Shown: positions 11,749 to 26,506 of the stretch, in pieces
How the letters are laid out: the number at the start of each line of letters is the position of its first letter
Numbering within the stretch: position 1 is the first letter of the stretch
DNA from: Escherichia phage vB_EcoM_ESCO9
Sequence record: OM386654.1
Strand: one strand, 5' to 3'
DNA: 64,000 nucleotides
The notes under the pieces: model-generated
What the model was told of the DNA's origin: nothing
Database searches by the model: none
Seen by the model: only the letters and a program-made list of their open reading frames with translations
Program-made: the position numbers and the translations under genes

Positions 11749-12345
11749 ATGACTCAGAAAATTTCCCTGAAAAAAGGTTCTAGCGAAAAAGTTTCTCTGA
11801 AAAAGATTGCACCAGCACTGAAACGCATTCGTCTGGAATTCTCTTGGAAATCTAACGAAAAACTGGATCTGGATGTTAGTGCTCTGATTTGCCGACACAA
11901 TGCATCTGGTCTGCCGGAACTGTTGTCTCCTCGCCACCTGGTGTGCTACGCGCAGAAATTTGATCCTGAACGTTCTACTTTTGCAGGTGAAGATGTTCGT
12001 GATGGTGTAGGACAGATGGAGCAGATTGATGTTACACTGGATAATATCTCTGCTGAAGCACAGGAAATTGCATTCGTAATTACTATTGATGACGAAACGG
12101 GTAAGAAACGCCTTGGTCACGCTACCGAAGGTTTCCTTAAAATCTTCGATGATGAACGTAATGTTGAACTGCTGGATTTTGACTTCTTGGCTCCAGAACT
12201 TGCAGGTAATACCATTTGCCACGTTGCCTCCCTGGTGCGGGAAGATAGCGAATGGAAACTGAAAGCATATGGTGTAGGTAAAGCTGGACTTGACATTTAT
12301 GATGTAGTTAAAGCGTTTGGCGCTGGCGACGATTGGTTCGAGTAA
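11749..12345 (+). CDS. terD: TerD-family protein
   Basis: ISLKKG...KVSLKK, LDLDVSALIC, FVITIDD, EWKLKAYGVG align in order with the TerD family pattern as recalled from E. coli TerD. Confidence 0.85.
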   Translation: MTQKISLKKGSSEKVSLKKIAPALKRIRLEFSWKSNEKLDLDVSALICRHNASGLPELLSPRHLVCYAQKFDPERSTFAGEDVRDGVGQMEQIDVTLDNISAEAQEIAFVITIDDETGKKRLGHATEGFLKIFDDERNVELLDFDFLAPELAGNTICHVASLVREDSEWKLKAYGVGKAGLDIYDVVKAFGAGDDWFE

Positions 12346-12354
12346 TAAATCATA

Positions 12355-12378
12355 GCGCCCTTCGGGGCGCATATTTTA
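12355..12378 (+). terminator. Intrinsic terminator (GCGCCC-TTCG-GGGCGC + AT/T-run)
   Basis: UUCG tetraloop hairpin immediately after terD stop. Confidence 0.5.
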
Positions 12379-12397
12379 AATAGAAGAGGAGAAAACA

Positions 12398-13000
12398 ATG
12401 GGTATTACTTTAGAAGGTCAAAAACTTATTCGTAGCGGTAATTTTCTTGTGGATATTGACAACAATGAAGATTATGCTTTAGAAGTTAGTGATGTACTGT
12501 TTAATGCTTTGCAGTCTGGTTTCAATTTTGAAGTTTATGAAGTAATCCGTGGAACTAAACTCAGAGATACCCTTGGATCAACTAGTGATGTTTATTCGGC
12601 AATCTGGCAATATTTCGGGTTAATGGATGGTAAGACATACCTTACTGATAGTTATTCTGAAGATGTTGTTTATCTTGATATGGAAGAGTTTCGTCGTCTG
12701 TTCAAAAATGAAGAAAATGAAGAAGAGGGTGAACTTTTTGAAGGAATTACTCTCGAAGGTAATGTTGAAATTGTGTATAAAGCAGGAAAAACATTCCACT
12801 TGCGCGAAAACGGTAAAGCAAAAGTTGATTTTGTAAACAAGACAGTAACAACTGAACATAATTATCTTAAAGATGGTCAACCAGCTTTTGAACGTGTAAC
12901 AATTAAATTTAAAGTATTGTCTGCACTAATTACGGATCAAGAACGTATTGATTTTGTAGAAGATGGTGTAGTAACTCATACGAAGGTCTACAACATCTAA
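12398..13000 (+). CDS. Hypothetical protein (200 aa)
   Basis: ORF with RBS AGAGGAG. Confidence 0.45.
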   Translation: MGITLEGQKLIRSGNFLVDIDNNEDYALEVSDVLFNALQSGFNFEVYEVIRGTKLRDTLGSTSDVYSAIWQYFGLMDGKTYLTDSYSEDVVYLDMEEFRRLFKNEENEEEGELFEGITLEGNVEIVYKAGKTFHLRENGKAKVDFVNKTVTTEHNYLKDGQPAFERVTIKFKVLSALITDQERIDFVEDGVVTHTKVYNI

Positions 13001-13010
13001 CAGGGTGTAA

Positions 13011-13029
13011 GAGGGGGATAATCCCCCTC
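13011..13029 (+). other. Stem-loop GAGGGGGA-TAA-TCCCCCTC (no U-tract)
   Basis: Perfect 8-bp inverted repeat after the 12398-13000 gene. Confidence 0.35.
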
Positions 13030-13032
13030 AAC

Positions 13033-13061
13033 TTGCAAAACAGCCTCTTCTGTGTTACAAT
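13033..13061 (+). promoter_or_regulatory. Sigma70-like promoter candidate (TTGCAA-17-TACAAT)
   Basis: Hexamers with 17-nt spacer upstream of cell wall hydrolase gene. Confidence 0.35.
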
Positions 13062-13092
13062 AAAAGTTCGTTTAACAAAATAGGAGGCAAGT

Positions 13093-13602
13093 TTGTCAAT
13101 AAAAACCTTTGTCGCAATTGCGTTACTATCCTTAACTGCTTTTACATTTACACCTGTCGTGGCGCAAGCCGAAGCTGCAAACGTAAAAACTGCTAAAGTA
13201 GTTCACAAGTGTACAAAGCGTGATAGTAAAGAAAATCTATTAGCTTGTGCAATCTATGCAGAAAGTCGTAATCAAGGAAAGCGCGGTATGTCTGCTGTTG
13301 GTAATGTAGTATTAAATAGGGCTAGAGATTCATATTTCCCTGATACTATAAAAGAAGTTTTGTTTCAAAAAGGACAATTCTCTTACACAAAGACATTCAA
13401 CGTTATGGAACGTGATAAGTGGAAGGAAGCTAAGGCTATAGCAGAACGTCTGCTTTATCTCGATACGCATTTTCCAGAATTACGAATTGCATTAGATATT
13501 ACAAAAGGAGCATTATACTTTAAAAAATCTACAATAAGAGCACACTGGGAAAAAGATATGGTTCTAGTGTACCGCTACAAAGAACATCAATTCTATCGCT
13601 AA
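13093..13602 (+). CDS. Secreted cell-wall hydrolase, SleB/Hydrolase_2-like
   Basis: N-terminal signal peptide (…FTPVVAQAEAANV); motif CAIYAESRNQG...GNVVLNRA...FSYTK typical of SleB-type cell wall hydrolases; TTG start with RBS AGGAGG. Confidence 0.6.
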   Translation: MSIKTFVAIALLSLTAFTFTPVVAQAEAANVKTAKVVHKCTKRDSKENLLACAIYAESRNQGKRGMSAVGNVVLNRARDSYFPDTIKEVLFQKGQFSYTKTFNVMERDKWKEAKAIAERLLYLDTHFPELRIALDITKGALYFKKSTIRAHWEKDMVLVYRYKEHQFYR

Positions 13603-13612
13603 GGAGATATAG

Positions 13613-13891
13613 ATGAAAGATGGCGTTATCGTTGCAAGTTATCTTGTTATTGGTCTTACAGAAGAGGATGTACATTACATTAGGAAACATTTAGAACAGT
13701 TTGCAATGATGTTCATCGAAGACGAAGACAATATGGATGTTTATTCAATTGAAATGATCAATGATAACGTCTATCCTTGTATAGCTTTACGAGTCGATGA
13801 AGATGTTTGGGAACGTTTTTCACGTAGTCACGATAATGTTGAATGTTCTATGGTTATGTCACAAAACAACATACTGGGAGTGTTACACTGA
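13613..13891 (+). CDS. Hypothetical protein (92 aa)
   Basis: ORF with RBS AAGGAG. Confidence 0.4.
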   Translation: MKDGVIVASYLVIGLTEEDVHYIRKHLEQFAMMFIEDEDNMDVYSIEMINDNVYPCIALRVDEDVWERFSRSHDNVECSMVMSQNNILGVLH

Positions 13892-14121
13892 TGGCTGATG
13901 TTATTGAGGTTAACTTTAAAACAAAAAAGAAAGTTGATAAGTATACAATCTTAAAAAATATTTGCGTTGTGTGCTTCAATTCTGTAATATATGACTCACG
14001 TAAGGGCGAAAATGAAAATGAACCTTACATCCAGATTTCTAAAGGTAAAGGGCAGTGTATCTGCAAAAACTGTGCTGTAGCAATTAAGGAGGTTGTAGAT
14101 GAAAACCATTGGGATCAATGA
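13891..14121 (+). CDS. Hypothetical small Cys-rich protein (possible zinc ribbon)
   Basis: ATG 13891 overlaps previous stop (ATGA); CVVC...CICKNC pattern. Confidence 0.35.
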   Translation: MADVIEVNFKTKKKVDKYTILKNICVVCFNSVIYDSRKGENENEPYIQISKGKGQCICKNCAVAIKEVVDENHWDQ

Positions 14122-14293
14122 TACTGGTGAAGTTGTAAAATCTTGGGATGATCTTAGTGGTATCCCTACAGATAAGCTGATTAAACTGCGTGATGTTTGT
14201 CGTGATCATCTTAATGAAACATATAAAGAGTATATGGAAGCACGAGATCACAGTTTAGCTATCCAAATGGAACTCGCAAAACGTAATCAATAG
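14099..14293 (+). CDS. Hypothetical protein (64 aa)
   Basis: ORF with RBS AAGGAGG. Confidence 0.35.
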   Translation: MKTIGINDTGEVVKSWDDLSGIPTDKLIKLRDVCRDHLNETYKEYMEARDHSLAIQMELAKRNQ

Positions 14294-14350
14294 GTAAAAC
14301 CATTTGGACTTTTTAGTCTAAAAATGCTAAAGTAATAATACGGAGGGAGT

Positions 14351-14914
14351 ATGATATTTCACATAACTCCCTATCTTTCTGGAGATATTGGAAAAGGTAT
14401 CAATGACACAATAAGTGTCTTACCAGAAGATAGTTGGATTTGCCTAAGAGACATTGATACAATGTTTCTTCTTCCAGAACAACCTGCTTGGCTGGAATCA
14501 ATTGTCCGTTCAAATCCTGATTTTGATGTTCTTGGTGCATCTTGTAACAGATTGGGATCAACATATCAATTATTTAATAATGAAAGAAGTGAAGATCCGA
14601 ATATATTACACCACATTGAGATTGCAAAAAGAGCACATCTAGAATGGGGAAACTCAATAGAGGAAGTACCTACAGATGCTATCTTAGCAGGATTCTTTCT
14701 TCTCTTTCGTAAGAGTCTGTGGAATGAAATTCCTTTTGAGGAAAGATCAATACAGTTTGATATAATTTTCTCTAAAGCATTGCACGCTAACAATAAAAGG
14801 CTAGGTTTACTACGTGGGTTATATTTATTTCACACATACCGTTTAGGTAATGATGATCCTAGAAAAGCTGTTTCACACCTTTTACATTGTCAAGACATGA
14901 ATAAAATTATTTAA
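14351..14914 (+). CDS. Hypothetical protein, possibly glycosyltransferase-related
   Basis: 187-aa ORF with RBS GGAGGGAG directly upstream of three GT-like genes; no firm motif. Confidence 0.35.
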   Translation: MIFHITPYLSGDIGKGINDTISVLPEDSWICLRDIDTMFLLPEQPAWLESIVRSNPDFDVLGASCNRLGSTYQLFNNERSEDPNILHHIEIAKRAHLEWGNSIEEVPTDAILAGFFLLFRKSLWNEIPFEERSIQFDIIFSKALHANNKRLGLLRGLYLFHTYRLGNDDPRKAVSHLLHCQDMNKII

Positions 14915-14923
14915 GGAGTTATT

Positions 14924-15610
14924 TTGGAAAATACAAAAATTGGTGTTGGTGTTATTACTGTAGGTAAGCGTCCTCTTAAAGATTATCTTGTGACTGATCC
15001 TAGTGCTACTTTTGTTGTACAGTATGATCGGGAACGAAAAGGTGTTGCATATGCTCGTAATGAACTGATGAAAAAGTTTTATGATGAAGGATATGATTAC
15101 TGGTTTATTTTTGATGATGATTGCTATCCTGTTGTTCAAGGTTGGGAAACATATTTTGTAAAACAGGCGAAGGAAAATGGTTGGGATTTCTTTGGTATGC
15201 CTGAATACTTTAAAGATAAAGTAAAAGGTATTGAAGGGGAAGTGGTTATTTGGGAGCTAGGAATGTGCCAGTTTGGTATGTATTCCCGTGCAGTTATTGA
15301 GAAAGCTGGCTATTTCCGCTCATACACCCACGGCTATGGGTATGAAGATGCAGAGTGGATTCATCGCGTCCCACTGGCAGGTTTGAACCGAGGTATTCAA
15401 GGCGTACCATGTCCTATTCGAATTATGGCGTTTATCCATCCTGATGATGTATTTGGAGACAATCCTTTACCTTTTGCGAATCTGTCAAAAGAAGAGAAAG
15501 AACAGGGGATTGGTGTAAACTGGGAACAATATAAACAATCCCTGGAGGATCTTCGCAATGGTAAAACTTTTATCTCTTATGAGGAGGCTCAAAAATATGG
15601 TAAATCCTAA
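14924..15610 (+). CDS. Putative glycosyltransferase (GT-A-like, DxD-type)
   Basis: Acidic motif FIFDDDCYP resembling DxD nucleotide-sugar-binding motif; TTG start with RBS AAGGAG. Confidence 0.4.
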   Translation: MENTKIGVGVITVGKRPLKDYLVTDPSATFVVQYDRERKGVAYARNELMKKFYDEGYDYWFIFDDDCYPVVQGWETYFVKQAKENGWDFFGMPEYFKDKVKGIEGEVVIWELGMCQFGMYSRAVIEKAGYFRSYTHGYGYEDAEWIHRVPLAGLNRGIQGVPCPIRIMAFIHPDDVFGDNPLPFANLSKEEKEQGIGVNWEQYKQSLEDLRNGKTFISYEEAQKYGKS

Positions 15611-16571
15611 TACTCCTGTACTTAAGTGTGATAATAAGTTAGGCAGTGGTTGTGATTACCATCGTATTGTAATGCCATTTGCTGGAAATACGTTTAAACC
15701 TAAGAAAGACGTTTTAGTTTTTAATAGAGTGTATTCTCGTGGATCAGACGAAGTTAAACGCCTGAAGGCACAAGGTGTTAAGATTATTGTTGATTTAGAT
15801 GATTTTTATTCGCTTAATCCTGAACATTATATGGCTGGCGTATTTACTAATCACTCAAAGACTATTGTAGAGATGATTAAGTTAGCAGATGTGGTTACTG
15901 TAACAACAGAATACCTAGCTTACAAAATTCGTCATTTAAATCGTAATGTTGTCGTTATTAGAAACGCACTACCTTACGACGAAGGTCAATTTACTTTGAC
16001 AAAAGACCGTTATTCTGACACGCCTATTATTTGGGCGGGAGGAGCAAGCCATGAACCTGATTTATCTCTTGTAGCTAATACATTTGATGATACGCTATTG
16101 ACAATTGCAGGGTATGAAGTGTATCCTTCTGCACCTGTTGGAAATAATAGTCAGTATCTAACTACTGCGGAGTGGGTTAAAGTAAAACGTAAAATTCCAA
16201 ATGCACAGTATAAACCAGCTATTAAAAATTTAGGTGAGTATATGTCTGTGTATGACGGTCACAGTATTGCAATTGCTCCTCTGGTAGATAATGACTTCAA
16301 CAACTGTAAAAGCAATTTGAAGATTTTGGAAGCAGGTGCAAAGGGTCTTCCTATTATCTGTTCTCCTGTGCTGCCGTACTTCAATCCGGTAGATGCAAAG
16401 GCTGTTATCTATGCAGACTCTAAAGCATCTTGGCATTATAAAGTTGTCAAGCTAATGAGGAACCCTAGATACACAGAAGATCGTGGTATGATGCTTGCAG
16501 AACACGTTCGTCTTAATTATAATCTTGCAGATGCTAATGAACTGCGTCGTCAAGTTATTGAAAGTCTTTAA
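15597..16571 (+). CDS. Putative GT-B fold glycosyltransferase (paralog 1)
   Basis: C-terminal motif KSNLKILEAGAKGLPIICSP resembles the GT-B E-x7-E/LEAxAxGxP sugar-donor motif; RBS GAGGAGG. Confidence 0.5.
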   Translation: MVNPNTPVLKCDNKLGSGCDYHRIVMPFAGNTFKPKKDVLVFNRVYSRGSDEVKRLKAQGVKIIVDLDDFYSLNPEHYMAGVFTNHSKTIVEMIKLADVVTVTTEYLAYKIRHLNRNVVVIRNALPYDEGQFTLTKDRYSDTPIIWAGGASHEPDLSLVANTFDDTLLTIAGYEVYPSAPVGNNSQYLTTAEWVKVKRKIPNAQYKPAIKNLGEYMSVYDGHSIAIAPLVDNDFNNCKSNLKILEAGAKGLPIICSPVLPYFNPVDAKAVIYADSKASWHYKVVKLMRNPRYTEDRGMMLAEHVRLNYNLADANELRRQVIESL

Positions 16572-16582
16572 TAAGGAGCTAT

Positions 16583-17527
16583 ATGCCTAATATTATTCTT
16601 GACACACGCGGAAATGAAAAGTATAGTGTATGTGATTTTCATAGAATCATTTTGCCATATAAACGCAAACTGACCATTAATCCTAAGCATAATATTTTTG
16701 TGTTCAATGGAGTACCAACACGTGGAAAGCCAGGTTTCCTGGCTCTTAAACAACTTGGGTTTAAATTGGTAATGGATCTGGATGATTCTTTAATTATTCC
16801 TGAAGGGCATATGCTTGAAGGATTATTTGAAAATCAAATCCGAGATGACCTAAAATGGTTCCTTGAAAGAAGTGATCTTGTAACTACAACAACTCCGGCA
16901 TTAAAGGTTGAATTAAGCCAATACAATGATAATGTACATATTGTGCCTAACGGACTACCTTTTGATGAAGGACAGTTTGTTCTTACTAAAGATCGTTATT
17001 CTAAAAGTCCACTGGTTTGGGCGGGAAGTGAAACACATAAACATGATTTAGCAATTCTTCCTGATTTTGGTAAAGATTTAACTTTATGTGGATTTCGTAG
17101 AGATCACGAAGAGTTAAGTAGTGCTCAATGGTTGCAAATTAAAGAAAATATTCAACCAGATTGTGTTTATGAAGGTATTCGTCCTTATGAGTGTTATATG
17201 GAAGCATACGATGGTCATCAAATCTCCATAGCTCCATTAGTAAATAATCATTTTAATAATGCCAAAAGTAATTTAAAAATTCTTGAAGCTGGTGCTAAAG
17301 GTTTGCCACTCGTTTGTTCGCCACGAGAGAACTATTATACTGAAGAATTTAAAGATCTAATCTTCTTTGCTGATTCAGTTAAAGAGTGGAAAGATATTGT
17401 AGAATACTTAATCGAATCCCCTGATGTTTGTATTGAGAAAGGATTGGCTCTTGCTAAGTATGTAAGAGATAACTACAATATTGATGATTTAAATGAAACC
17501 CGCAGACTGCTTATCGAGGATTTATAA
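16583..17527 (+). CDS. Putative GT-B fold glycosyltransferase (paralog 2)
   Basis: Clear paralog of 15597-16571 (shared FVFNGV/DLDD, LTKDRYS, DGHxISIAPLVNN.FNN.KSNLKILEAGAKGLP blocks); RBS AAGGAG. Confidence 0.5.
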   Translation: MPNIILDTRGNEKYSVCDFHRIILPYKRKLTINPKHNIFVFNGVPTRGKPGFLALKQLGFKLVMDLDDSLIIPEGHMLEGLFENQIRDDLKWFLERSDLVTTTTPALKVELSQYNDNVHIVPNGLPFDEGQFVLTKDRYSKSPLVWAGSETHKHDLAILPDFGKDLTLCGFRRDHEELSSAQWLQIKENIQPDCVYEGIRPYECYMEAYDGHQISIAPLVNNHFNNAKSNLKILEAGAKGLPLVCSPRENYYTEEFKDLIFFADSVKEWKDIVEYLIESPDVCIEKGLALAKYVRDNYNIDDLNETRRLLIEDL

Positions 17528-17808: not shown

Positions 17809-19581
17809 GTGTCTTATGTTGTAAATAAATATGGGTATAACATTGATCTAAGTCAAGAAGGACATACTGGGTGTCCTCGTTGTATGAAAGGAGGGCGTGA
17901 TCGATCACAAAACAATTTGATGGTATATGGCTTAGATGCCGATGAAGACCATCGAGGCGCACATTGTTTTTCTTGTGGCTTTACTATCCCTGATCAAAAA
18001 TGGTTAAATGCACACGGCGAAGAAATTGAAGAGGAGGATATCTTGGGTAGTGAGTTTAATCCAGAAGTACATGATAAACTAAAAGCCAGCACTGGAACTA
18101 ATCCAAAAGGTTATCGCGGTATTCGTGAAGATATCTCTAAGCCTTTCGGTGTACGTTATATGTACGATGAAGCTACTGGCGAAGTAATTTCAACACTATA
18201 CCCTACAACTAAAGATTACAATATTGCTGGGTATAAACAACGTATCGATCCAAAAGATTTCTCACATCCTATCGGTGAAACAGGAAAGGATTGTGATCTT
18301 TTTGGGGAGTTTAAATATCGTAACCACAGCGGTACTATTCTAATCGTTGGTGGTGAACACGATATGCTGGCTGCAACACAGATGCTAAAAGATTATAACA
18401 AGGGTGGTAAATATCCTGTTCCTGCTGTAGTATCTGGTACTTGTGGCGAAACATCTCTGCATAAGCAGCTTCAACATCGTTATAAATTCTTAGATCAATT
18501 TAAAAAGATTGTTCTATGTATGGATAATGATGAAGCTGGACGTGCAGCAGTTGAGAAATGTGTTAAAATCTTACCACGTAATAAAGTTTACGTGATGGAA
18601 CTAACGGATGTTAAAGATCCTAACCAGGCACTAGTAGAAGGAAAAATTGATCATTTTATTGATCGCTTTTTCAAAGCTAAACTGTACACACCTGCTGGTG
18701 TTTACGCTTCTAACGTACTATATGAAGCAGCCTTGGAATGCCTGGAAGCTAAAATGATCACCCTTCCTCCATTCATGCGTGTTGCTTCGAATATGTTAGG
18801 TGGAGGCTTGGTAGAAGAAGAAATTACTGTTATACTTGCAAAAACAAGTATCGGTAAGACACTGTTGGTTAACGAGATTACGAAACACATTATTCTTGCA
18901 CACCCAGAACATACTCTTGGTATTTTATCTTTGGAGGCAACGTATAAGAAGTATTCTCGTAACTTACTGTCTTCATTCTTGCATATCCCTCTTCACCGTA
19001 AAACGAAAGAAGAGAAGGAAAAGATTTTAAAAGATAATGAAGAAAAGATTCGTGATTTTTACGAACGAGAAGATGGAACACCACGTTTCTATGTTTGTGA
19101 TGATCGTGGAGCTAACGTAGATGTGATTAAAGAGAAGGTTCTGGAAATGATTATTTATTTCGGAGTAACCATTCTTGTTATCGACCCTTATTCTGACTTG
19201 CTTTCTGGTATGGACGTGTCACAACAAGAGGAACTTGCGACGTGGCTGAAACGCATTATGAAAGAGTATGCAATAACCATTGTTGTAATTTCACACGTTA
19301 AAAAGTCTTCTAACAATAGTAATGAACATATTGTAGAAGATGATGCAATGGGTAGTAGCTTCCTTGCTAAAGGTGCTGGTATCACAATTGCGCTGGAGCG
19401 TGATAAACAAGCTGAAGATCCTATGGAACGTAACCGCACATATTGCTACATTCTAAAGAACCGTGAGTTCTCAGAGACTGGTGCAGCAGGTAGTTTCTTC
19501 TATGAGATTAAAACAGCTACACTTCACGATTACGATCAATACACAAGTAACCCAGAGAATATTCCTGATGGTTCTTATTAA
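17809..19581 (+). CDS. DNA primase-helicase (Zn-ribbon/TOPRIM primase fused to DnaB-like helicase, T7 gp4-type)
   Basis: N-terminal CPRC...CFSCGF zinc ribbon; central acidic TOPRIM-like region; C-terminal P-loop LAKTSIGKT and Walker B LVIDPYSD; GTG start with RBS AGGAG. Confidence 0.7.
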   Translation: MSYVVNKYGYNIDLSQEGHTGCPRCMKGGRDRSQNNLMVYGLDADEDHRGAHCFSCGFTIPDQKWLNAHGEEIEEEDILGSEFNPEVHDKLKASTGTNPKGYRGIREDISKPFGVRYMYDEATGEVISTLYPTTKDYNIAGYKQRIDPKDFSHPIGETGKDCDLFGEFKYRNHSGTILIVGGEHDMLAATQMLKDYNKGGKYPVPAVVSGTCGETSLHKQLQHRYKFLDQFKKIVLCMDNDEAGRAAVEKCVKILPRNKVYVMELTDVKDPNQALVEGKIDHFIDRFFKAKLYTPAGVYASNVLYEAALECLEAKMITLPPFMRVASNMLGGGLVEEEITVILAKTSIGKTLLVNEITKHIILAHPEHTLGILSLEATYKKYSRNLLSSFLHIPLHRKTKEEKEKILKDNEEKIRDFYEREDGTPRFYVCDDRGANVDVIKEKVLEMIIYFGVTILVIDPYSDLLSGMDVSQQEELATWLKRIMKEYAITIVVISHVKKSSNNSNEHIVEDDAMGSSFLAKGAGITIALERDKQAEDPMERNRTYCYILKNREFSETGAAGSFFYEIKTATLHDYDQYTSNPENIPDGSY

Positions 19582-20077: not shown

Positions 20078-22657
20078 ATGGGAGCTTTTACTTTCGACAT
20101 TGAAAGTAACAACTTGCTTAATGACGAAAGTGTAGATTACTTGGCAAGTCCATATCGTTTAAAAGATAGTTTTGCAATGCACTGTATTGTGTGCGAAAGT
20201 CATGATACTGGAGAGATTATTGCTTTCCATGATGGTGATAAATATCTTTTCGATGGTCGTCCGTATATTGAGACTGACGGAAAGTATGAATACCGACTGG
20301 AGGAATATGAGCATTTAGAATATACCCATTTCCCTCTTAAAGATTTTCCTGATTTTGTAAATGGAACAGGTAAATTTAAAGGTAATTCAAACTATAAAAT
20401 TACCAAAGTAGTTGGACATAACATCATTAACTTTGACTTACTGGCAATTAAATTATTTTTTAAACTCAACTACAGTATTAAGTACAATACTTGGGGTAAT
20501 AGTAACATTGAAATTTGTGATACTATGATCTTAAGTAAGACACTAAACCCTGATCGCTTCGGTGGTCATAGTCTGGCAGAGTTATCTAAGAAAGCTGGAG
20601 GGGATGTTAAAATTGATTTTAGAAAAAACATCCCTGAAACTGAAAGATTTAAAACATTTGCAGCAGATATGCTGTATTACTGTATTTACGATAACAAAGC
20701 TAACACCGCAGTGTTCCGTTATTTGATGGAAGAGTGGGGTGATTATAATAAGTGGTCTGAACCATTTAACTTAGAACAACGTGTAGCTGATATTATTACA
20801 CGTCAAGAGCACCGTGGCTTTGCTTTCAATATGAAGCAAGCAGAAGATAATATTCGTGATCTGGATGCTCGAATGGAAGCATGTCGTTTAGAGGCAGAAC
20901 CTGTGCTACCTCCTAAACCTGCTACTAAAGGTTATTTGAAATCATTCATTCCACCTAAACTACAGTTTAAAAAGAATGGTGAACCTTCAAGTAACATGAT
21001 AAAGTTTGCAGAGAAACATTCTGGTGAACTTGTACAAAAAGAAGATGGTTGGTGGTTATTTGCATTAGGTAAAGAGTTTAAACTGCCTATTCCAGCAGAA
21101 GAACCTATTTGTGATCCTACAGTACCTGCTACTTTAGACGACACTACACATATTAAAAATTGGTTAGTTGGTTTAGGTTGGAGTCCATCTGAATATAAAG
21201 ATAAAGATATCACTCTTAAATCTGGCACTAAGATTAAGAAAGATGAAGCACAAATGGAGAAAGCTATTCGTGACTATGTTGATCAAACATTAGCATCTAA
21301 CTTCTGCCAGGATAGATGTGATCATCTGGAGTGCACACCAGAAACTTTGGAATGGAAACTAAGAGATCGTATTGCTAAAGCTAAAGGTCGTGGTGTTAAG
21401 GTGCTTACTAACCCTTCCTTTACAAAAGGGCAAGAGAAGGATATTTGTCCTAACTTGGAAGCACTAGGTGAAAAGTTTCCTTATGCTACGCAGATTGTGC
21501 AGTATCTTACGTATAAACATCGTAGAAACTCTATTCTAGGCGGTGGTGCTGATTGGGAAGAGGATGAAGAGGATTACGATAAAGGTTATCTGGCGGCAGT
21601 AAGGGCTGATGGTCGTATACCGACTCCTGCTGCAACGTGTGATGCAGCTACGTCTCGTATGAAACATAGGTTAGTAGCAAATATCCCACGTGTAACATCT
21701 CTGTACGGATATGAAATGCGTAACTTATTTGGTGTAGAAGTTCCAAAATACTTCCAAATTGGTTATGACTTTGATTCTCTTGAGGCAAAAATAGAATCAC
21801 ACTACTGTTGGCGGTACGAGCAGGAACCACATGAATATTGTAATGCTCTATTATTGGAAAAACCTAATGATGTTCATACAATGATGGCTCGACGTATTTC
21901 TGACACTATTGGTCGTAAGTTTGAACGAAGCCCTGCTAAATCTGTTAAGTATGGTATTACTTATGGTGCTCAAGCTGCAAAAGTAGCAAAAACTATAGGT
22001 AGTGATATGTATACAGGACAGCTTGTATACGATGCTTTCTGGGAAGCTGCAAAACCTCTTGCGCTTCTTAAAGAACGTCTGCATGATTTTTGGGTTAAAA
22101 CAGGTAAGAAATACATTCTTGGTATTGATGGTAGGAAAGTACCTACACGATCTGCACACGCAATACTTAACTCTCTGTTCCAGAGTGGTGGTGTTATTTG
22201 TGCAAAAAGAGCAATGGTTATCTACGACGATCTTATCGAAGAAGAAGGATTAGCTGTTGACTTTTTTGTTGATGACTGGAAAAATAAGTCATTCGTTCAA
22301 CAAATGATTGCATATCACGATGAAGCACAGCTTGAAGTAACTCGTGATCTGGTGCATTTTAAATGGTTCTCTAAAGAATCTTTAGGTTGGACTCAAGTTG
22401 ATGATCCAGAAGAACAAAAGAAAATTGATAAAGAATGTTTGGATAAGGTTAATGCCTGGAAAGAAGAGGAAGAGAAACGTACTGGCAAGATTTGGGCTAA
22501 CGTACATGAATCTCCGAAAGGTGGTTGGTTTACAGCCTACAGTCGTGCTGGAGAATTAGCATCTATCGCTGTTAATAAAGCTGGTGAGTATTACAATCTT
22601 AATGTACCTCTCACTGCTGGTTACGATGTTGGTAGTTCATGGTCAACTTGTCACTGA
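20078..22657 (+). CDS. DNA polymerase, family A (Pol I-like) with N-terminal 3'-5' exonuclease region
   Basis: Motif B-like RRISDTIGRKFERSPAKSVKYGITYGAQ and motif C YHDEAQLEV; 859 aa; RBS AAGGAGGGAG. Confidence 0.8.
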   Translation: MGAFTFDIESNNLLNDESVDYLASPYRLKDSFAMHCIVCESHDTGEIIAFHDGDKYLFDGRPYIETDGKYEYRLEEYEHLEYTHFPLKDFPDFVNGTGKFKGNSNYKITKVVGHNIINFDLLAIKLFFKLNYSIKYNTWGNSNIEICDTMILSKTLNPDRFGGHSLAELSKKAGGDVKIDFRKNIPETERFKTFAADMLYYCIYDNKANTAVFRYLMEEWGDYNKWSEPFNLEQRVADIITRQEHRGFAFNMKQAEDNIRDLDARMEACRLEAEPVLPPKPATKGYLKSFIPPKLQFKKNGEPSSNMIKFAEKHSGELVQKEDGWWLFALGKEFKLPIPAEEPICDPTVPATLDDTTHIKNWLVGLGWSPSEYKDKDITLKSGTKIKKDEAQMEKAIRDYVDQTLASNFCQDRCDHLECTPETLEWKLRDRIAKAKGRGVKVLTNPSFTKGQEKDICPNLEALGEKFPYATQIVQYLTYKHRRNSILGGGADWEEDEEDYDKGYLAAVRADGRIPTPAATCDAATSRMKHRLVANIPRVTSLYGYEMRNLFGVEVPKYFQIGYDFDSLEAKIESHYCWRYEQEPHEYCNALLLEKPNDVHTMMARRISDTIGRKFERSPAKSVKYGITYGAQAAKVAKTIGSDMYTGQLVYDAFWEAAKPLALLKERLHDFWVKTGKKYILGIDGRKVPTRSAHAILNSLFQSGGVICAKRAMVIYDDLIEEEGLAVDFFVDDWKNKSFVQQMIAYHDEAQLEVTRDLVHFKWFSKESLGWTQVDDPEEQKKIDKECLDKVNAWKEEEEKRTGKIWANVHESPKGGWFTAYSRAGELASIAVNKAGEYYNLNVPLTAGYDVGSSWSTCH

Positions 22658-22684: not shown

Positions 22685-23281
22685 ATGCTTACCGTATATG
22701 GTGAAGGTATTAATGATTTGGAAGGCGAGAGTACGCTACCTGGTAGTAAGAAACTAACGCCGCATTATATGAAATGGATGGCTATGTTGGGGAGGTGTTA
22801 CTCCCCTTGTCAACAAGAACGTGATCCTTGTTATAATGGGGTGACGGTTTGTGAAGAATGGAAACTGTTCTCCAATTTCTACTCTTGGTTGCAAACTTGG
22901 GATAACTGGGAAAACTTAGAACTTGATAAAGATATTATAGGAGGGAGAGTTTACTCTCCCGATACCTGTCTTTTAGTAACAGGAGATCTTAACAAGTTCT
23001 TAGCTTATAGAGTAAGTAAAAGATCTCATGGGACTATGGTAGGATGTAGTTACGAAAAAGATCGTAAAAAGTATAAAGCCCATATTCAACGTGATGGACG
23101 TGTTATAACACTGGGACGTTTTAATACTGAAATTGAAGCGCATCTTTGTTGGTTGAAGGCTAAGGCAGAACAGCTTACAAAATTCTTTGAAACTGAAGAT
23201 GAAAGAGTTGTTCCACATCTTAAAGCACTATATAATGAAATGCTTGAGCATGTAGAACAACACAAAGAGTGGACACGATAG
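22685..23281 (+). CDS. AP2-domain protein, possible HNH/homing-endonuclease-like
   Basis: YKAHIQRDGRVITLGRFNTEIEAHLCW resembles AP2 DNA-binding domains found in phage homing endonucleases; Cys/His-rich N-terminal half. Confidence 0.4.
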   Translation: MLTVYGEGINDLEGESTLPGSKKLTPHYMKWMAMLGRCYSPCQQERDPCYNGVTVCEEWKLFSNFYSWLQTWDNWENLELDKDIIGGRVYSPDTCLLVTGDLNKFLAYRVSKRSHGTMVGCSYEKDRKKYKAHIQRDGRVITLGRFNTEIEAHLCWLKAKAEQLTKFFETEDERVVPHLKALYNEMLEHVEQHKEWTR

Positions 23282-23289
23282 GAGAAAAT

Positions 23290-23883
23290 ATGAATATTGA
23301 AGATCAAAAAGTACGAGCTTTAGAAGTATTACGTATGTGCCAACTGGTAGATCCGTTTGCAATTGTAGCTGGCGGCGCTGTACGTGACTGGCGATTAGAG
23401 AAACCTGCGCAAGATATTGACATTTACTTGCGTATGCCTAACCACAATACACTCGTGCTAGTAGAGAAGTTTTTGATGTTGGGTGTTGGTGCACGTAATG
23501 TTAAACAACTTACTAAGCAAACAGAACACACTTATGCCGAACTACCACATTTGAAATGGGTATTTGAAGCATACTATAAAGACCTTAAGTTTAACTTTAT
23601 GATCATGGAAGAAGGTGTACGCAGTGAAATCGTATGGAACTTTGATGTAGCTATTTGCCTGTGTTACTGGGATGGTCAAAATTATGTATATCATCCAGAT
23701 TTTGAATTTGCACTGAAAACTAATATTTGTACTATTAATCACCGCTACACAGGTAAAGAAGCACACGTCCGTAAAATGGCAGAACGTTTCCCTATGTTCC
23801 GCTTTGTAAAAGACGTTTTCATTCCCAAAGAACCAGAAGTACGTACACTGGATTCATTTAACAACGAAGAATTTAAGATTTAA
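23290..23883 (+). CDS. Nucleotidyltransferase, polymerase-beta/CCA-adding-enzyme head-domain-like
   Basis: GGAVRDW...DIDIY matches the GGxVRD...DxD head motif of class II tRNA nucleotidyltransferases/poly(A) polymerases; only ~200 aa (no obvious body/tail domains). Confidence 0.5.
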   Translation: MNIEDQKVRALEVLRMCQLVDPFAIVAGGAVRDWRLEKPAQDIDIYLRMPNHNTLVLVEKFLMLGVGARNVKQLTKQTEHTYAELPHLKWVFEAYYKDLKFNFMIMEEGVRSEIVWNFDVAICLCYWDGQNYVYHPDFEFALKTNICTINHRYTGKEAHVRKMAERFPMFRFVKDVFIPKEPEVRTLDSFNNEEFKI

Positions 23884-23886
23884 GTG

Positions 23887-23916
23887 TTGACAAACATTAT
23901 AATTATGTGTTATTAT
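23887..23916 (+). promoter_or_regulatory. Sigma70-like promoter candidate (TTGACA-18-TATTAT)
   Basis: Consensus -35, acceptable -10, upstream of 23927 ORF. Confidence 0.35.
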
Positions 23917-23926
23917 TAGGACTTGA

Positions 23927-24325
23927 ATGACAGATAATCGTTCTAAAATCTTAGTCGAGACGTTCTACAGTAGAGAAACTAATCGTCTTGAGCTAACTAA
24001 AAAAGATGTTGAACCTCAAGATAATACCTTTTTTATTCAAATACTATGTCTCTTTGGTGGATACAATCGTTTAACAGTGAGAGTAGAAAACAAAGAGATA
24101 TCTGAAACCACTATCACAAAACGTGAACTAATGCTACTACAGGATACAATACGAGATGTTTTGGATAATCCTGGAAAAGCAAAAGTAATTAACCTTGGTG
24201 GAGAAAAGATACAAATCCTCCATTTCGAAAGTGGTGAAATAGGATTTGGTATTGGTCTTGGTAAATACCTGTTGGAAGAAACTGACGCTACTCTTTTACG
24301 AGAGTTTTGTGTTAAAGTAATGTAA
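23927..24325 (+). CDS. Hypothetical protein (132 aa)
   Basis: ORF after promoter candidate. Confidence 0.4.
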   Translation: MTDNRSKILVETFYSRETNRLELTKKDVEPQDNTFFIQILCLFGGYNRLTVRVENKEISETTITKRELMLLQDTIRDVLDNPGKAKVINLGGEKIQILHFESGEIGFGIGLGKYLLEETDATLLREFCVKVM

Positions 24326-24341
24326 TTATAGAGGAGAATTT

Positions 24342-25289
24342 ATGCCAGTAATTAATTCTGAAATCGATCGTCGTACTAAAAAAGAAGCATTCTGGGCTGA
24401 AGGTATCGTTGAATATGTCAAACTAGATAAGTTTGATGAAATGAAAGTCTCTTATATTAAGGTTGCAGGTCAGCCAGATAAGAAAATTGAATCAACTCAC
24501 AAAGCATCCCTGCTTATTAAAGAGAAAGGTGCTGGTGCTGATGATAAAGGTGTTTGGGTTAGCCTAGGTGAAGTTAAACTGCACCCAGAACATGAAAACC
24601 TGCAAGTTAAAGATGGTGATAAGTGGATTACTATCGAAAAAGGTGTAGAAGTAACTATGGATGTTAAACCTTCCGAATGGAATGGCAAAACATACTACAA
24701 CTCCTCTAAAGGTAAAATCACTGTTCTTTCAACAGAAGGTGTTCAGCAAGCACAATCTTCTTCAAAAGGTGGAAATAAGCCATCTAATAACGAAGGTAGC
24801 AAGCCTAACTACAAAAAACGTGATACCGTAGGGATTGAAACAGGACACGCTGTAAACGGCGCTCTGGAGCTTCTACGTGCTGGTGTGAAAGGTGATGCTT
24901 TCGACTTGGCTGGTGTGGTACAATCTGCAACTGTTAATCTGAAAGCAGAAATTGCTAAAGATCGTGGCGTTGATGTGACTGACTATGATCTTGGTGCTTC
25001 AGTTGGACACGCAATTCTTAACGCTTGTCGTGATCATACAGGTAAAACTGTAACGGCAGAAGAGATTATTGAAGCTGCTCGTGAAGTTCTTGCTTTGTCT
25101 GATAAAGTAGCTGCTGCTATCCGTGGAATGTCTACCCCAGTACAAGAAGTTAAGAAAGAAACTAAAAAAGTAGAGAAAAAAGAGCCAGCACCGAAAGAAC
25201 CAGAACCTGTTGTTCAAGATTTCGATGATGATATCCCATTTGCTCCTATTGGTTTGCAGTATGGTCGAAATTTCCTGCACTGTTTCTAA
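24342..25289 (+). CDS. Hypothetical protein (315 aa), possible DNA-binding protein
   Basis: ORF with RBS GAGGAG in replication module; C-terminal acidic tail (DFDDDIPF) reminiscent of SSB-type tails but no firm motif. Confidence 0.4.
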   Translation: MPVINSEIDRRTKKEAFWAEGIVEYVKLDKFDEMKVSYIKVAGQPDKKIESTHKASLLIKEKGAGADDKGVWVSLGEVKLHPEHENLQVKDGDKWITIEKGVEVTMDVKPSEWNGKTYYNSSKGKITVLSTEGVQQAQSSSKGGNKPSNNEGSKPNYKKRDTVGIETGHAVNGALELLRAGVKGDAFDLAGVVQSATVNLKAEIAKDRGVDVTDYDLGASVGHAILNACRDHTGKTVTAEEIIEAAREVLALSDKVAAAIRGMSTPVQEVKKETKKVEKKEPAPKEPEPVVQDFDDDIPFAPIGLQYGRNFLHCF

Positions 25290-25312
25290 TAGTTAAATAT
25301 TGTGTGAATATA

Positions 25313-25337
25313 AGGAGCCTAACGGCTCCTTTTCTTT
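25313..25337 (+). terminator. Intrinsic terminator (AGGAGCC-TAAC-GGCTCCT + TTTCTTT)
   Basis: Perfect 7-bp stem followed by T-run. Confidence 0.5.
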
Positions 25338-25349
25338 GAAGGAGATATA

Positions 25350-26081
25350 ATGAGCGAATTTGTAAACAACACCGCATTAAACTACCTGCAAACCCTCGAA
25401 AGCAATAGTGTAGATTTGATTCTTACTGACCCACCATATGCTATTTCTCGTGACACAAATTTTCAGTCTGGAGAGCCTACTGGAAAAGATACGGATAGAT
25501 TCCGTGTATCTTACAACTTCGGTGATTGGGATGTTGTAGATATTCCTTACTTTAAAGAAGTATTCAAAGAAGCCTACAGGGTGCTTAGAAAAGGTGGTAC
25601 TTGCATAGTTTGGTATGATATCTGGAAGATCCAGGAACTACGTGAAATCCTTGAACCGCTTGGTTTTCGTATGTTCCGTACCATCGAATGGATTAAAACA
25701 AACCCTGTACCCATCAACAGTGGTGTTAACTACCTTAGTAACGCTAAAGAGATGGCTATTGTTTGTGTTAAAGGTTCGAAACCAACCTTCAATGCTTCCT
25801 ACCATAAGGGTGTGTTTGAGTATCCTATCTATCAAGGAGCAGATCGTTTTCATCCAACACAAAAACACTTGACTTTGTTTTGTGACCTTATTAATATACA
25901 CACCAACGAAGGAGATGTAGTCTTAGACTTCTTCTCTGGAAGTGCAACAACACAAGTTGCGGCACTTTTAACAGGTAGAGAATACTTAGGCTGTGAAGCC
26001 GATGTAAATATTTTTAAGCAAGCGGAGGAACGACTAAATGAGTACACTGAACAGCAAAATCACCCTGAAAGCACTGATTAA
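25350..26081 (+). CDS. DNA methyltransferase, beta-class amino-MTase (N6-adenine or N4-cytosine)
   Basis: Motif IV DPPY (LILTDPPYAI) precedes motif I-like VLDFFSGSATT; no adjacent restriction endonuclease recognised. Confidence 0.75.
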   Translation: MSEFVNNTALNYLQTLESNSVDLILTDPPYAISRDTNFQSGEPTGKDTDRFRVSYNFGDWDVVDIPYFKEVFKEAYRVLRKGGTCIVWYDIWKIQELREILEPLGFRMFRTIEWIKTNPVPINSGVNYLSNAKEMAIVCVKGSKPTFNASYHKGVFEYPIYQGADRFHPTQKHLTLFCDLINIHTNEGDVVLDFFSGSATTQVAALLTGREYLGCEADVNIFKQAEERLNEYTEQQNHPESTD

Positions 26082-26469
26082 CAATGGTATGAACCTGGAC
26101 TCTGGTCTGTCTCCAAAGATTTCTATGGCACGACTGGAACAAGTTACTGGTCTTCGTCAAGTAAGTAATGGCGGTAAGATTATTCGTGATGACGCTGTAC
26201 CTTTTAATAAGTTTCAGATTGAACGTCATTACGATCCTGTAACTGCAAGCCTCACTGGTGTAACTTTCTCAGGTTATCGTACTGCCGGATACCAGCGTAA
26301 AGTTGTAGCTGAACGTATTAAGAGTCGCAAACAGAAAATTGCGACATTGAAGAAACTGGTAGAGAAAGATGTTTCAGAACTTCTTAACCTGTATGAAACT
26401 CTTGAGACAAAAGGTGAAGATCATAAACTCTTCTCTAAAGAAGATGTAAGCGTAATTTTCACTGATTAA
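26038..26469 (+). CDS. Hypothetical protein (143 aa)
   Basis: ATG overlapping MTase 3' end; RBS GGAGGAACG. Confidence 0.4.
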   Translation: MSTLNSKITLKALINNGMNLDSGLSPKISMARLEQVTGLRQVSNGGKIIRDDAVPFNKFQIERHYDPVTASLTGVTFSGYRTAGYQRKVVAERIKSRKQKIATLKKLVEKDVSELLNLYETLETKGEDHKLFSKEDVSVIFTD

Positions 26470-26473
26470 GATA

Positions 26474-26506
26474 AAAGAAAAGGAGCCTAATGGCTCCTTT
26501 TTGTTT
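26474..26506. terminator. Bidirectional intrinsic terminator at convergent junction (A-run, AAGGAGCC-TAAT-GGCTCCTT, T-run)
   Basis: Perfect 8-bp stem flanked by A-tract and T-tract between last plus-strand gene and first minus-strand gene. Confidence 0.6.

Follow-up and report, generated by a model that had tools for sequence, protein, structure and literature searches.

A minimal class II-type nucleotidyltransferase in the replication module of a phi92-like phage, apparently distinct from CCA-adding enzymes as well as from poly(A) polymerases

Introduction

Class II nucleotidyltransferases (NTases) include the CCA-, CC- and A-adding enzymes and the bacterial poly(A) polymerases (PAPs). Their catalytic cores contain motifs A to E, of which motif D (EDxxR) serves as an amino-acid template for CTP and ATP, and the D and R of this motif were irreplaceable in selection experiments (PMC11784652). 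Motif B (RRD) recognizes the ribose, and bacterial PAPs carry a signature of their own, [LIV][LIV]G[RK][RK]Fx[LIV]h[HQL][LIV], located between motif A and the loop (PMC2910056). Here we analyze a small phage gene whose product resembles the catalytic head of these enzymes. The gene lies in a 64,000-nucleotide stretch of Escherichia phage vB_EcoM_ESCO9 (record OM386654.1, hereafter the window), which belongs to a phi92-like myovirus (Justusliebigvirus, Stephanstirmvirinae), and is the equivalent of phi92 gene 158 and VEcB gp203.

Several described proteins can be compared with this NTase. Gp22 of Klebsiella phage fHe-Kpn01, a protein of 182 residues, is toxic in E. coli and resembles CCA-adding enzymes by HHpred (PMC7291057). 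Like the window NTase (197 residues), Gp22 is small, matches PHROG 1614 (at 1.3e-39), has an F-D variant of motif B and is encoded directly after a family A polymerase in a primase/helicase/polymerase module. In contrast to these similarities, hhalign aligned Gp22 with the window subfamily over 27 columns, covering motif A only, with a probability of 61%; Gp22 also keeps an acidic residue on the strand where the window family has Q/N102, and its gene resides in a podovirus whereas the window comes from a 148-kb myovirus. Small genes annotated as 'tRNA nucleotidyltransferase' have been noted in Autographiviridae, where they lie between the genes for primase/helicase and polymerase, and their role was left open; they correlate with the host, being present in 37 of 46 Pectobacterium phages but in 60 of more than 500 others (PMC7693777). 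Apart from Gp22, these proteins are beyond the reach of BLAST, and their likeness to the window NTase is one of annotation and position.

Other phages encode class II enzymes of full length: 472 phage records match the head of E. coli Cca with 40–66% identity. Phage Cca proteins (Cronobacter phage CR9 gp217, Avunavirus 24-2-1, jumbo phages) are phage-borne class II enzymes like the window NTase, but those examined (from CR9 and an Avunavirus) have 400–415 residues, contain RRD and EDxxR and are encoded outside the replication module, none of which is true of the window NTase. A stand-alone bacterial protein of 191 residues from S. pneumoniae (NP_344798.1, PDB 2LA3), named 'CCA-adding enzyme head domain' by structural genomics, is 9% identical to the window NTase, and we found no evidence that the two belong to a common family. 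Finally, the MenT and AbiEii toxins are small NTases that extend tRNA acceptor ends and thereby stop translation (PMC10435456, PMC11541572).

The gene itself is not new. Identical proteins have been deposited with generic annotations (the RefSeq label is 'nucleotidyltransferase'), the family has been catalogued as PHROG 1614 and PF26128, and the rV5-like homolog is called 'putative tRNA nucleotidyl transferase / poly(A) polymerase' in several GenBank records. What is new here is that this last label fails each defining test, that the family is a distinct minimal variant of the class II enzymes, very large and apparently phage-restricted, and that its consistent home is a T7-type replisome module and not anything tRNA-related. 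With more than 1,200 clusters, and with carriers that range from coliphages and ICP1 to marine vibriophages and a cyanophage, the family occupies the commonest type of phage replication module. Knowledge of its substrate would close a gap that recurs in the maps of phage genomes; it might bring to light a new device for host shut-off or nucleotide scavenging, or else a step of phage DNA replication that nobody has suspected. As an untemplated 3'-end transferase of minimal size (20 kDa), the protein could, moreover, serve as a reagent.

Results

The predicted fold is that of a class II catalytic head

We modelled the NTase with AlphaFold2 from an alignment of 104 relatives (pLDDT 90, pTM 0.83) and compared the model with the PDB by Foldseek. 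The first 42 places were all occupied by class II enzymes, with alignments of 150–199 columns, and these were the poly(A) polymerase I (PAP I) of E. coli and CCA-adding and A-adding enzymes. Other branches of the Pol-beta superfamily ranked lower (TENT5B 8.1, Pol X 7.3, aminoglycoside NTase 7.3, MenT1 6.5, CD-NTase 6.1).

At motif A (GGAVRDWRLEKPAQDIDIY), the NTase carries G28-G29-A-V-R32-D33 and D42-I-D44-I-Y46. Column statistics over 260 relatives, which are otherwise only ~26% identical, show G28, G29, D42 and D44 to be invariant and R32, D33 and W34 to be conserved in at least 90%. The spacing GGxxRD-x8-DxD occurs in the window protein, in 239 of the 260 relatives and in both E. coli Cca and PcnB, and because it is common to all of these the motif is no chance match. 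The same statistics define a conserved set that is the family's own, consisting of Q6, Y82, Q/N102, W126, K128, F138, Y153, K162 and F167-P168.

No segment other than motif A could be matched by sequence with class II enzymes of the PDB. A profile of 104 sequences matched solved CCA-adding enzymes only across ~50 residues at this motif (E 0.019), and the Pfam model of the PolyA_pol head (PF01743) matched residues 26–81 only, at 19.1 bits (E 0.0017), which is below its gathering cut-off of 23. The NCBIfam CCA equivalog models, whose cut-offs are 290 and 281 bits, scored only 15.0 and 13.9 bits, respectively. A full-length match was obtained with phrog_1614 ('nucleotidyltransferase'; 2e-34, residues 7–193), and PF26128 is the precomputed label on a 99%-identical public protein (P0001) and on many relatives.

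Taken together, the model and motif A indicate that the NTase has a genuine class II-type catalytic head. A preliminary description of the window, made from the sequence, had proposed just this, a stand-alone head domain of the CCA-adding/poly(A) polymerase type with a GGAVRD...DIDIY motif in a protein of about 200 residues; the motif is present as it was written, and the fold comparison that the description had suggested ended with class II enzymes and not with MNT or CD-NTase-like proteins. The description had also stated that neck, body and tail are all missing. This is correct for the body and the tail, but the first neck helix (residues ~158–166) is apparently kept, as judged by the model and a relaxed profile alignment, and the protein ends ~30 residues beyond it.

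The small size of the protein and its generic hG[GS]...DxD signature, which is common to the whole superfamily, might suit an MNT-type antitoxin, a MenT/AbiEii-type toxin or a CD-NTase acting with a cognate partner, and we regard membership in any of these groups as hardly credible. No MNT structure was among the top fold hits, and no HEPN or defence-type partner was found near the gene, which is flanked by an HNH endonuclease gene and a PHROG 16560 member and gave no PADLOC hit; an MNT antitoxin or HEPN-MNT module is thus effectively refuted. We likewise found neither the fold and operon-encoded effector gene of a CD-NTase nor the fold and cognate antitoxin of MenT or AbiEii (DUF1814). A functional analogy to the MenT and AbiEii toxins may exist, given that a PHROG-level relative of the NTase is toxic.

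Signatures of CCA-adding enzymes, as well as those of poly(A) polymerases, are missing

We searched 260 family members for the signatures that define CCA-adding enzymes and PAPs, with E. coli Cca, PcnB and the full-length Cca of phage CR9 as positive controls. RRD was present in a single relative and D..RRD in none, and the window protein has N117-F118-D119 at this position, where F118, conserved in 93%, takes the place of the second Arg of motif B. ED..R was found anywhere in the sequence in 10 of 260 relatives and not in the window protein, and the positions that align with motif D (156/157) are variable among the relatives. All three controls scored positive for both motifs. The PAP signature, detected in E. 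coli PcnB, was absent from all 260 relatives, as was its relaxed form G[RK][RK]F.

Alignments gave a similar picture. Against single Cca or PcnB sequences, hhalign aligned motif A alone. A relaxed hhalign run against a Cca/PcnB profile was collinear over 200 columns (probability 31%, with low confidence past motif A) and set N117-F118-D119-VAICL on K-R-R-D-LTINA and G155-K156-E157-A158 on G-E-D-P. The Cca/PcnB profile is shallow, containing close relatives only, and this full-length alignment is a guide backed by the pattern counts. Finally, the body and tail that bind and measure tRNA, and that bring CCA-adding enzymes to a total of ~370–450 residues, have no place in a protein of 197 residues, nearly all relatives of which have 170–230.

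Because RRD, EDxxR, the PAP signature and the tRNA-measuring domains are all gone, we conclude from its sequence that the NTase is not a CCA-adding enzyme, and not a poly(A) polymerase of the bacterial type either. Compared with the CCA- and A-adding enzymes (E. coli Cca, the B. stearothermophilus enzyme 1MIV and the A. aeolicus A-adding enzyme 4WBY) it is about half the size, has neither RRD, EDxxR, body nor tail, and is similar over ~50 residues. Compared with E. coli PcnB (3AQL) it is without the PAP signature, RRD, EDxxR and the C-terminal RNA-binding region. PAP I is strongly basic, whereas the window NTase, with a pI of 6.3, is near-neutral like its family as a whole (median pI 6.1). The public name 'putative tRNA nucleotidyl transferase/poly(A) polymerase' is thus misleading, as the protein failed all tests specific to one or the other enzyme.

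The loss of motifs B and D raises the question of whether the protein is an enzyme at all. No third catalytic carboxylate is conserved among the 260 relatives; the position on the likely strand is Q/N102 (Q in 236 of 260). These features could point to a catalytically dead scaffold or regulator that binds a nucleotide or a partner protein. We consider this very unlikely, because the absolute conservation of both motif A Asp residues and the GG turn over 260 sequences with ~26% identity is not expected in a dead enzyme, and the toxicity of Gp22 (PMC7291057) fits an active one.

The NTase is not linked to tRNA genes

As an enzyme of tRNA 3'-end repair or protection, the NTase would keep CCA in place on tRNAs of the phage or the host, or put it back, for example when a host nuclease has attacked them. 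CCA- and A-adding enzymes are among its closest folds, and the phage has tRNA genes without a second, canonical class II enzyme in the ~96% of the phi92-like genome that was checked (the window together with VEcB 1–50 kb and 76–147.7 kb, leaving out VEcB 50.0–56.5 kb). A Cca-like gene of full length is present in some related large Klebsiella phages and the small NTase in others, and no genome appears in both lists, a pattern that would be compatible with alternative solutions to one need. The host tRNA nucleotidyltransferase is, furthermore, reported to be important for phage growth (Morse & Deutscher 1976, as cited in PMC7693777). However, motifs B and D are absent, including the irreplaceable D and R of the latter (PMC11784652), there is no body or tail to bind and measure a tRNA, and the NCBIfam CCA models score far below their cut-offs. 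Genuine phage CCA enzymes, in addition, are full length and sited elsewhere in the genome, and E. coli has a repair enzyme of its own. We therefore rate CCA repair as improbable.

The distribution of tRNA genes argues in the same direction. As the preliminary description stated, all tRNA genes of the window (six of six) encode their 3'-CCA; in each, the discriminator and CCA follow in the DNA, and the cluster lies ~39 kb from the NTase gene. tRNA genes were found within 8 kb of the NTase in only 6 of 40 related loci, and the complete 46.9-kb genome of Vibrio phage 384E50-1 contains the NTase and zero tRNA genes. We therefore reject a linkage between the NTase and tRNA genes; given the missing motifs and domains as well, the connection that the preliminary description had drawn to tRNA 3'-end repair, and to phage tRNAs with an encoded CCA, is not supported. 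Its alternative proposal, some different role in nucleotide transfer, may still hold. The same description had missed the T7-type replisome module that surrounds the gene.

The family is large and apparently phage-restricted

An exhaustive profile search of 1.84 billion representatives (clusters at 50% identity) returned 3,259 proteins at E ≤ 1e-3, 1,227 at ≤ 1e-10 and 239 at ≤ 1e-30; the weakest of these matches may include canonical enzymes caught via motif A. Nearly all matches have 170–230 residues. Among cultured phages, the family is present in ~194 records, which comprise phi92, the rV5-like Phapecoctavirus, ICP1 (ORF223, a head-only form of 137 residues) and other Vibrio, Aeromonas, Pseudanabaena and Curvibacter phages. 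A pattern scan of 185,579 prokaryotic species, with one genome per species, found only nine loci, all of them on contigs of metagenome-assembled genomes and several of phage size; the scan demanded the peptide [LVI]AGGAPRDW, so that divergent copies would be missed. The family thus appears to be restricted to phages.

Within the phi92-like phages the gene is nearly constant. The NTase protein is 98.5–100% identical across dozens of them, and the 1.8 kb around the gene is 99.2% identical to Escherichia phage VEcB and 95–99% identical to ~50 other records. Three records labelled as Campylobacter phages A145, B15 and C3 (MG065645, MG065650, MG065656) are 99% identical in this region to E. coli phi92-like or rV5-like phages, and their host label is probably wrong or due to contamination.

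The NTase gene resides in T7-type replication modules

In the window, the NTase gene is part of a tightly spaced block on one strand with the order primase-helicase, small open reading frame (ORF), family A DNA polymerase (PolA), HNH endonuclease, NTase, gp204, single-stranded DNA-binding protein (SSB)-like protein and methyltransferase (Table 1). Terminator-like hairpins were found only after the SSB-like gene (25312–25331) and at the convergent end of the block. The SSB-like homologs are annotated as single-stranded DNA-binding protein in KP2025 and ESCO32.

In 80 IMG/VR loci, we grouped the genes that surround the NTase into families and named these by Pfam. The commonest neighbour was a T7 gp4-type primase-helicase (52 of 77 loci), and family A polymerase (38), 5'-3' exonuclease (18), ATP-dependent ligase (13), an acidic-tail SSB (9) and a second polymerase type (9) also recurred, as did ThyX. 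In 41 loci dereplicated at 60% identity, a primase-helicase or replicative polymerase gene was present within 8 kb in 28, and within two genes of the NTase in 15, compared with 15% for other genes of those loci. The gene orders seen were PrimHel-NTase-PolA, NTase-PrimHel-Pol, PolA-NTase-FEN-PrimHel, Lig-NTase-PrimHel and PrimHel-PolA-NTase-gp204-SSB, and because the order varies in this way among loci, the association of the NTase with the replisome survives rearrangement. The downstream gene gp204 (PHROG 16560) was considered as a family-wide partner and rejected, as it remained confined to phi92/rV5-like phages after HMM iteration.

This context could indicate that the NTase is a replisome accessory that acts on primer or DNA 3' ends at the fork. 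It might extend or repair RNA primers, add untemplated (deoxy)nucleoside monophosphates to DNA ends, or prepare tRNA-like ACCA 3' ends for hand-over to the polymerase by a gp4-type primase. T7 primase makes pppACCA/ACCC primers, which match tRNA 3' ends. Suggestive in the same sense is a study which, by its title (Zhu et al., PNAS 2012; reference in PMC8501957), reports that tRNA primes the replication of T7 DNA. The persistence of the gene beside gp4-type primase-helicase, PolA, SSB, FEN and ligase despite rearrangements also speaks for a role at the fork, and the loss of RRD, which reads the ribose (PMC2910056), removes the known class II discrimination against dNTPs. The rV5-like homologs (phAPEC8 L001:3974-4567, phiWec188 L003:4001-4597) end in ...DDIPW, which resembles the C-terminal tip of SSB, while the window NTase ends in ...NNEEFKI. 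However, SSB-like acidic/aromatic C-terminal tails are not enriched in the family (7.3% versus 7.7% in control ORFs) and were rejected as a family trait; the distribution of the gene is patchy, and no fusions were seen. On balance, we think an accessory function at the fork unlikely.

A more specific proposal, to which we give little credence, is that the family acts as a terminal transferase coupled to the replisome: a catalytic core derived from a CCA enzyme, no longer able to discriminate between riboses or bases, that cooperates with the primase-helicase and polymerase of the T7 type. Such an enzyme could make, extend or repair primer-like 3' ends (ACCA-type or tRNA primers), or it could tail replication intermediates or genome ends with untemplated (deoxy)nucleoside monophosphates. 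If this were true, it would be a previously unrecognised enzyme of a very common phage replication module.

A possible activity in tailing RNA 3' ends

To our knowledge, the class II enzymes characterised so far all act by extending the 3'-OH of an RNA. Because of this precedent, and with PAP I as the closest structure, the NTase would by default be read as an enzyme of template-independent transfer of nucleoside monophosphates to RNA 3' ends. We tentatively hypothesize, as the likeliest of the readings but one that may well prove wrong, that the NTase is a minimal class II-derived transferase that tails RNA 3' ends, likely those of host RNAs, without CCA specificity. The protein consists of the class II head and, apparently, the first neck helix only; both metal-binding Asp residues are kept, as is the GG-x-x-RD turn that holds the triphosphate, and the protein would be catalytically competent. 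It would move nucleoside monophosphates from NTPs to RNA 3'-OH ends free of a template, and the tailing would not be CCA-specific because the protein has lost both the C/A template and the tRNA ruler.

The targets would likely be host RNAs, including tRNA 3' ends, on which tailing could block aminoacylation and/or give host exonucleases a toehold. The outcome might be host shut-off and a supply of nucleotides during phage DNA replication. The NTase would be expressed with the replication (middle) genes, and co-expression with nucleotide-metabolism genes would suit host shut-off. There is precedent for such an effect, as excess PAP I kills E. coli when mature tRNAs become polyadenylated and their aminoacylation is blocked (PMC3561954). 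Both this precedent and the toxicity of the PHROG-level relative Gp22 would fit an action on host RNA.

Several points weigh against RNA tailing. A near-neutral pI without any recognisable RNA-binding module is unusual for an enzyme that has to hold RNA alone, and full activity is not guaranteed because there is no conserved third carboxylate. To transfer the toxicity of Gp22 to the window NTase is a stretch, because the homology between them rests on PHROG membership and motif A. We found no functional study of phi92 gene 158, ICP1 ORF223, PF26128 or 2LA3 in the literature. An activity at the fork, and not on host RNA, would suit the replisome context just as well. Finally, the acceptor might be RNA, DNA, protein or a small molecule. 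In another reading, the NTase would transfer nucleotidylyl groups to targets that are not nucleic acids: it might AMPylate or UMPylate a host or phage protein, or produce or use up a small molecule derived from a nucleotide, in signalling or counter-defence. We regard a function of this kind as rather unlikely. The PADLOC defence catalogue gave no hits.

Features of the locus

The coordinates of the features are collected in Table 1. The ORF that contains the NTase gene spans 23269–23883 on the plus strand and offers an alternative upstream GTG at 23269. We assign the start to the ATG instead, because the AGGAG sits 5 nucleotides upstream of it; this AGGAG overlaps the TAG stop codon (23279–23281) of the preceding HNH gene.

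Table 1 Features of the window relevant to the NTase gene
Feature	Coordinates	Strand	Remarks
T7 gp4-type primase-helicase (Toprim_2 + DnaB_C)	17809..19581	+	Pfam; upstream of NTase
Family A DNA polymerase	20078..22657	+	859 aa; Pfam DNA_pol_A; RefSeq 'DNA polymerase I'
HNH homing endonuclease	22685..23281	+	PHROG 953 at 8.5e-74; between polymerase and NTase genes
Shine-Dalgarno AGGAG	23280..23284	+	5 nt 5' of ATG 23290; read directly from the sequence
Minimal class II-type NTase, coding sequence	23290..23883	+	197 aa; stop codon included
Motif A, residues 28-46	23371..23427	+	helical-turn GG and metal-binding D42, D44
Degenerate motif B position, residues 117-127 (NFDVAICLCYW)	23638..23670	+	aligned to class II RRDxTINA
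gp204, PHROG 16560	23927..24325	+	132 aa; downstream of NTase
SSB-like protein, PHROG 4477	24342..25289	+	DFDDDIPF near C terminus
Methyltransferase	25350-26081	+	after SSB-like gene
ORF, PHROG 20244	26038-26469	+	after methyltransferase
Six tRNA genes with encoded CCA	62852..63567	-	ARAGORN, Rfam

Upstream of the NTase, the HNH gene is absent at the matching position of phAPEC8-like phages, where three tiny ORFs are found instead, and the polymerase gene is split or contains an intein in some relatives, according to the annotations of KP2025 and SD2. Downstream, the 43-bp gap between the NTase stop codon and gp204 contains a sigma-70-like promoter match that is the best of the 9.5-kb region (23887–23916, plus strand; TTGACA-18-TATTAT with TG, 11/12), which suggests that gp204 and the SSB-like gene may have a separate transcription start.

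The SSB-like protein contains the exact tip of E. coli SSB, DFDDDIPF, but at an internal position, with 15 residues beyond it (APIGLQYGRNFLHCF); a tip that is not C-terminal is unusual. The methyltransferase gene and the PHROG 20244 ORF overlap by 44 bases (26038–26081) in different frames, and a bidirectional terminator-like hairpin (26477–26502) separates the block from a convergent tail-protein gene.

Four glycosyltransferase genes lie directly upstream of the primase-helicase. In VEcB (NC_052663; 12–50 kb), and in the window at ~12000–17500, there are genes for NAMPT, a ribose-phosphate pyrophosphokinase, a Sir2-like protein and a dTDP-rhamnose-type pathway. Together with the glycosyltransferases, these genes could serve to reconstitute NAD+ and to modify glycans or DNA. 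The same region has a 'tRNA amidotransferase' and two small fragments annotated as 'histidyl tRNA synthetase'.

In the tRNA cluster, the first acceptor pair of tRNA-Met (63074–63152) is mismatched. On the same strand, stretches between and beyond the called genes, at ~62930–63020 and below 62852, are tRNA-like: they contain GGTTCGATTCC, which resembles a T arm, and an end that is acceptor-like and has CCA after it; neither ARAGORN nor Rfam called them, and they may be decayed or unusual tRNAs. On one of the IMG/VR contigs that carry the NTase (L037:16100-16198), a tRNA with a CTA anticodon (an amber suppressor, named 'Pyl' by ARAGORN) adjoins a tRNA-Arg(TCT).

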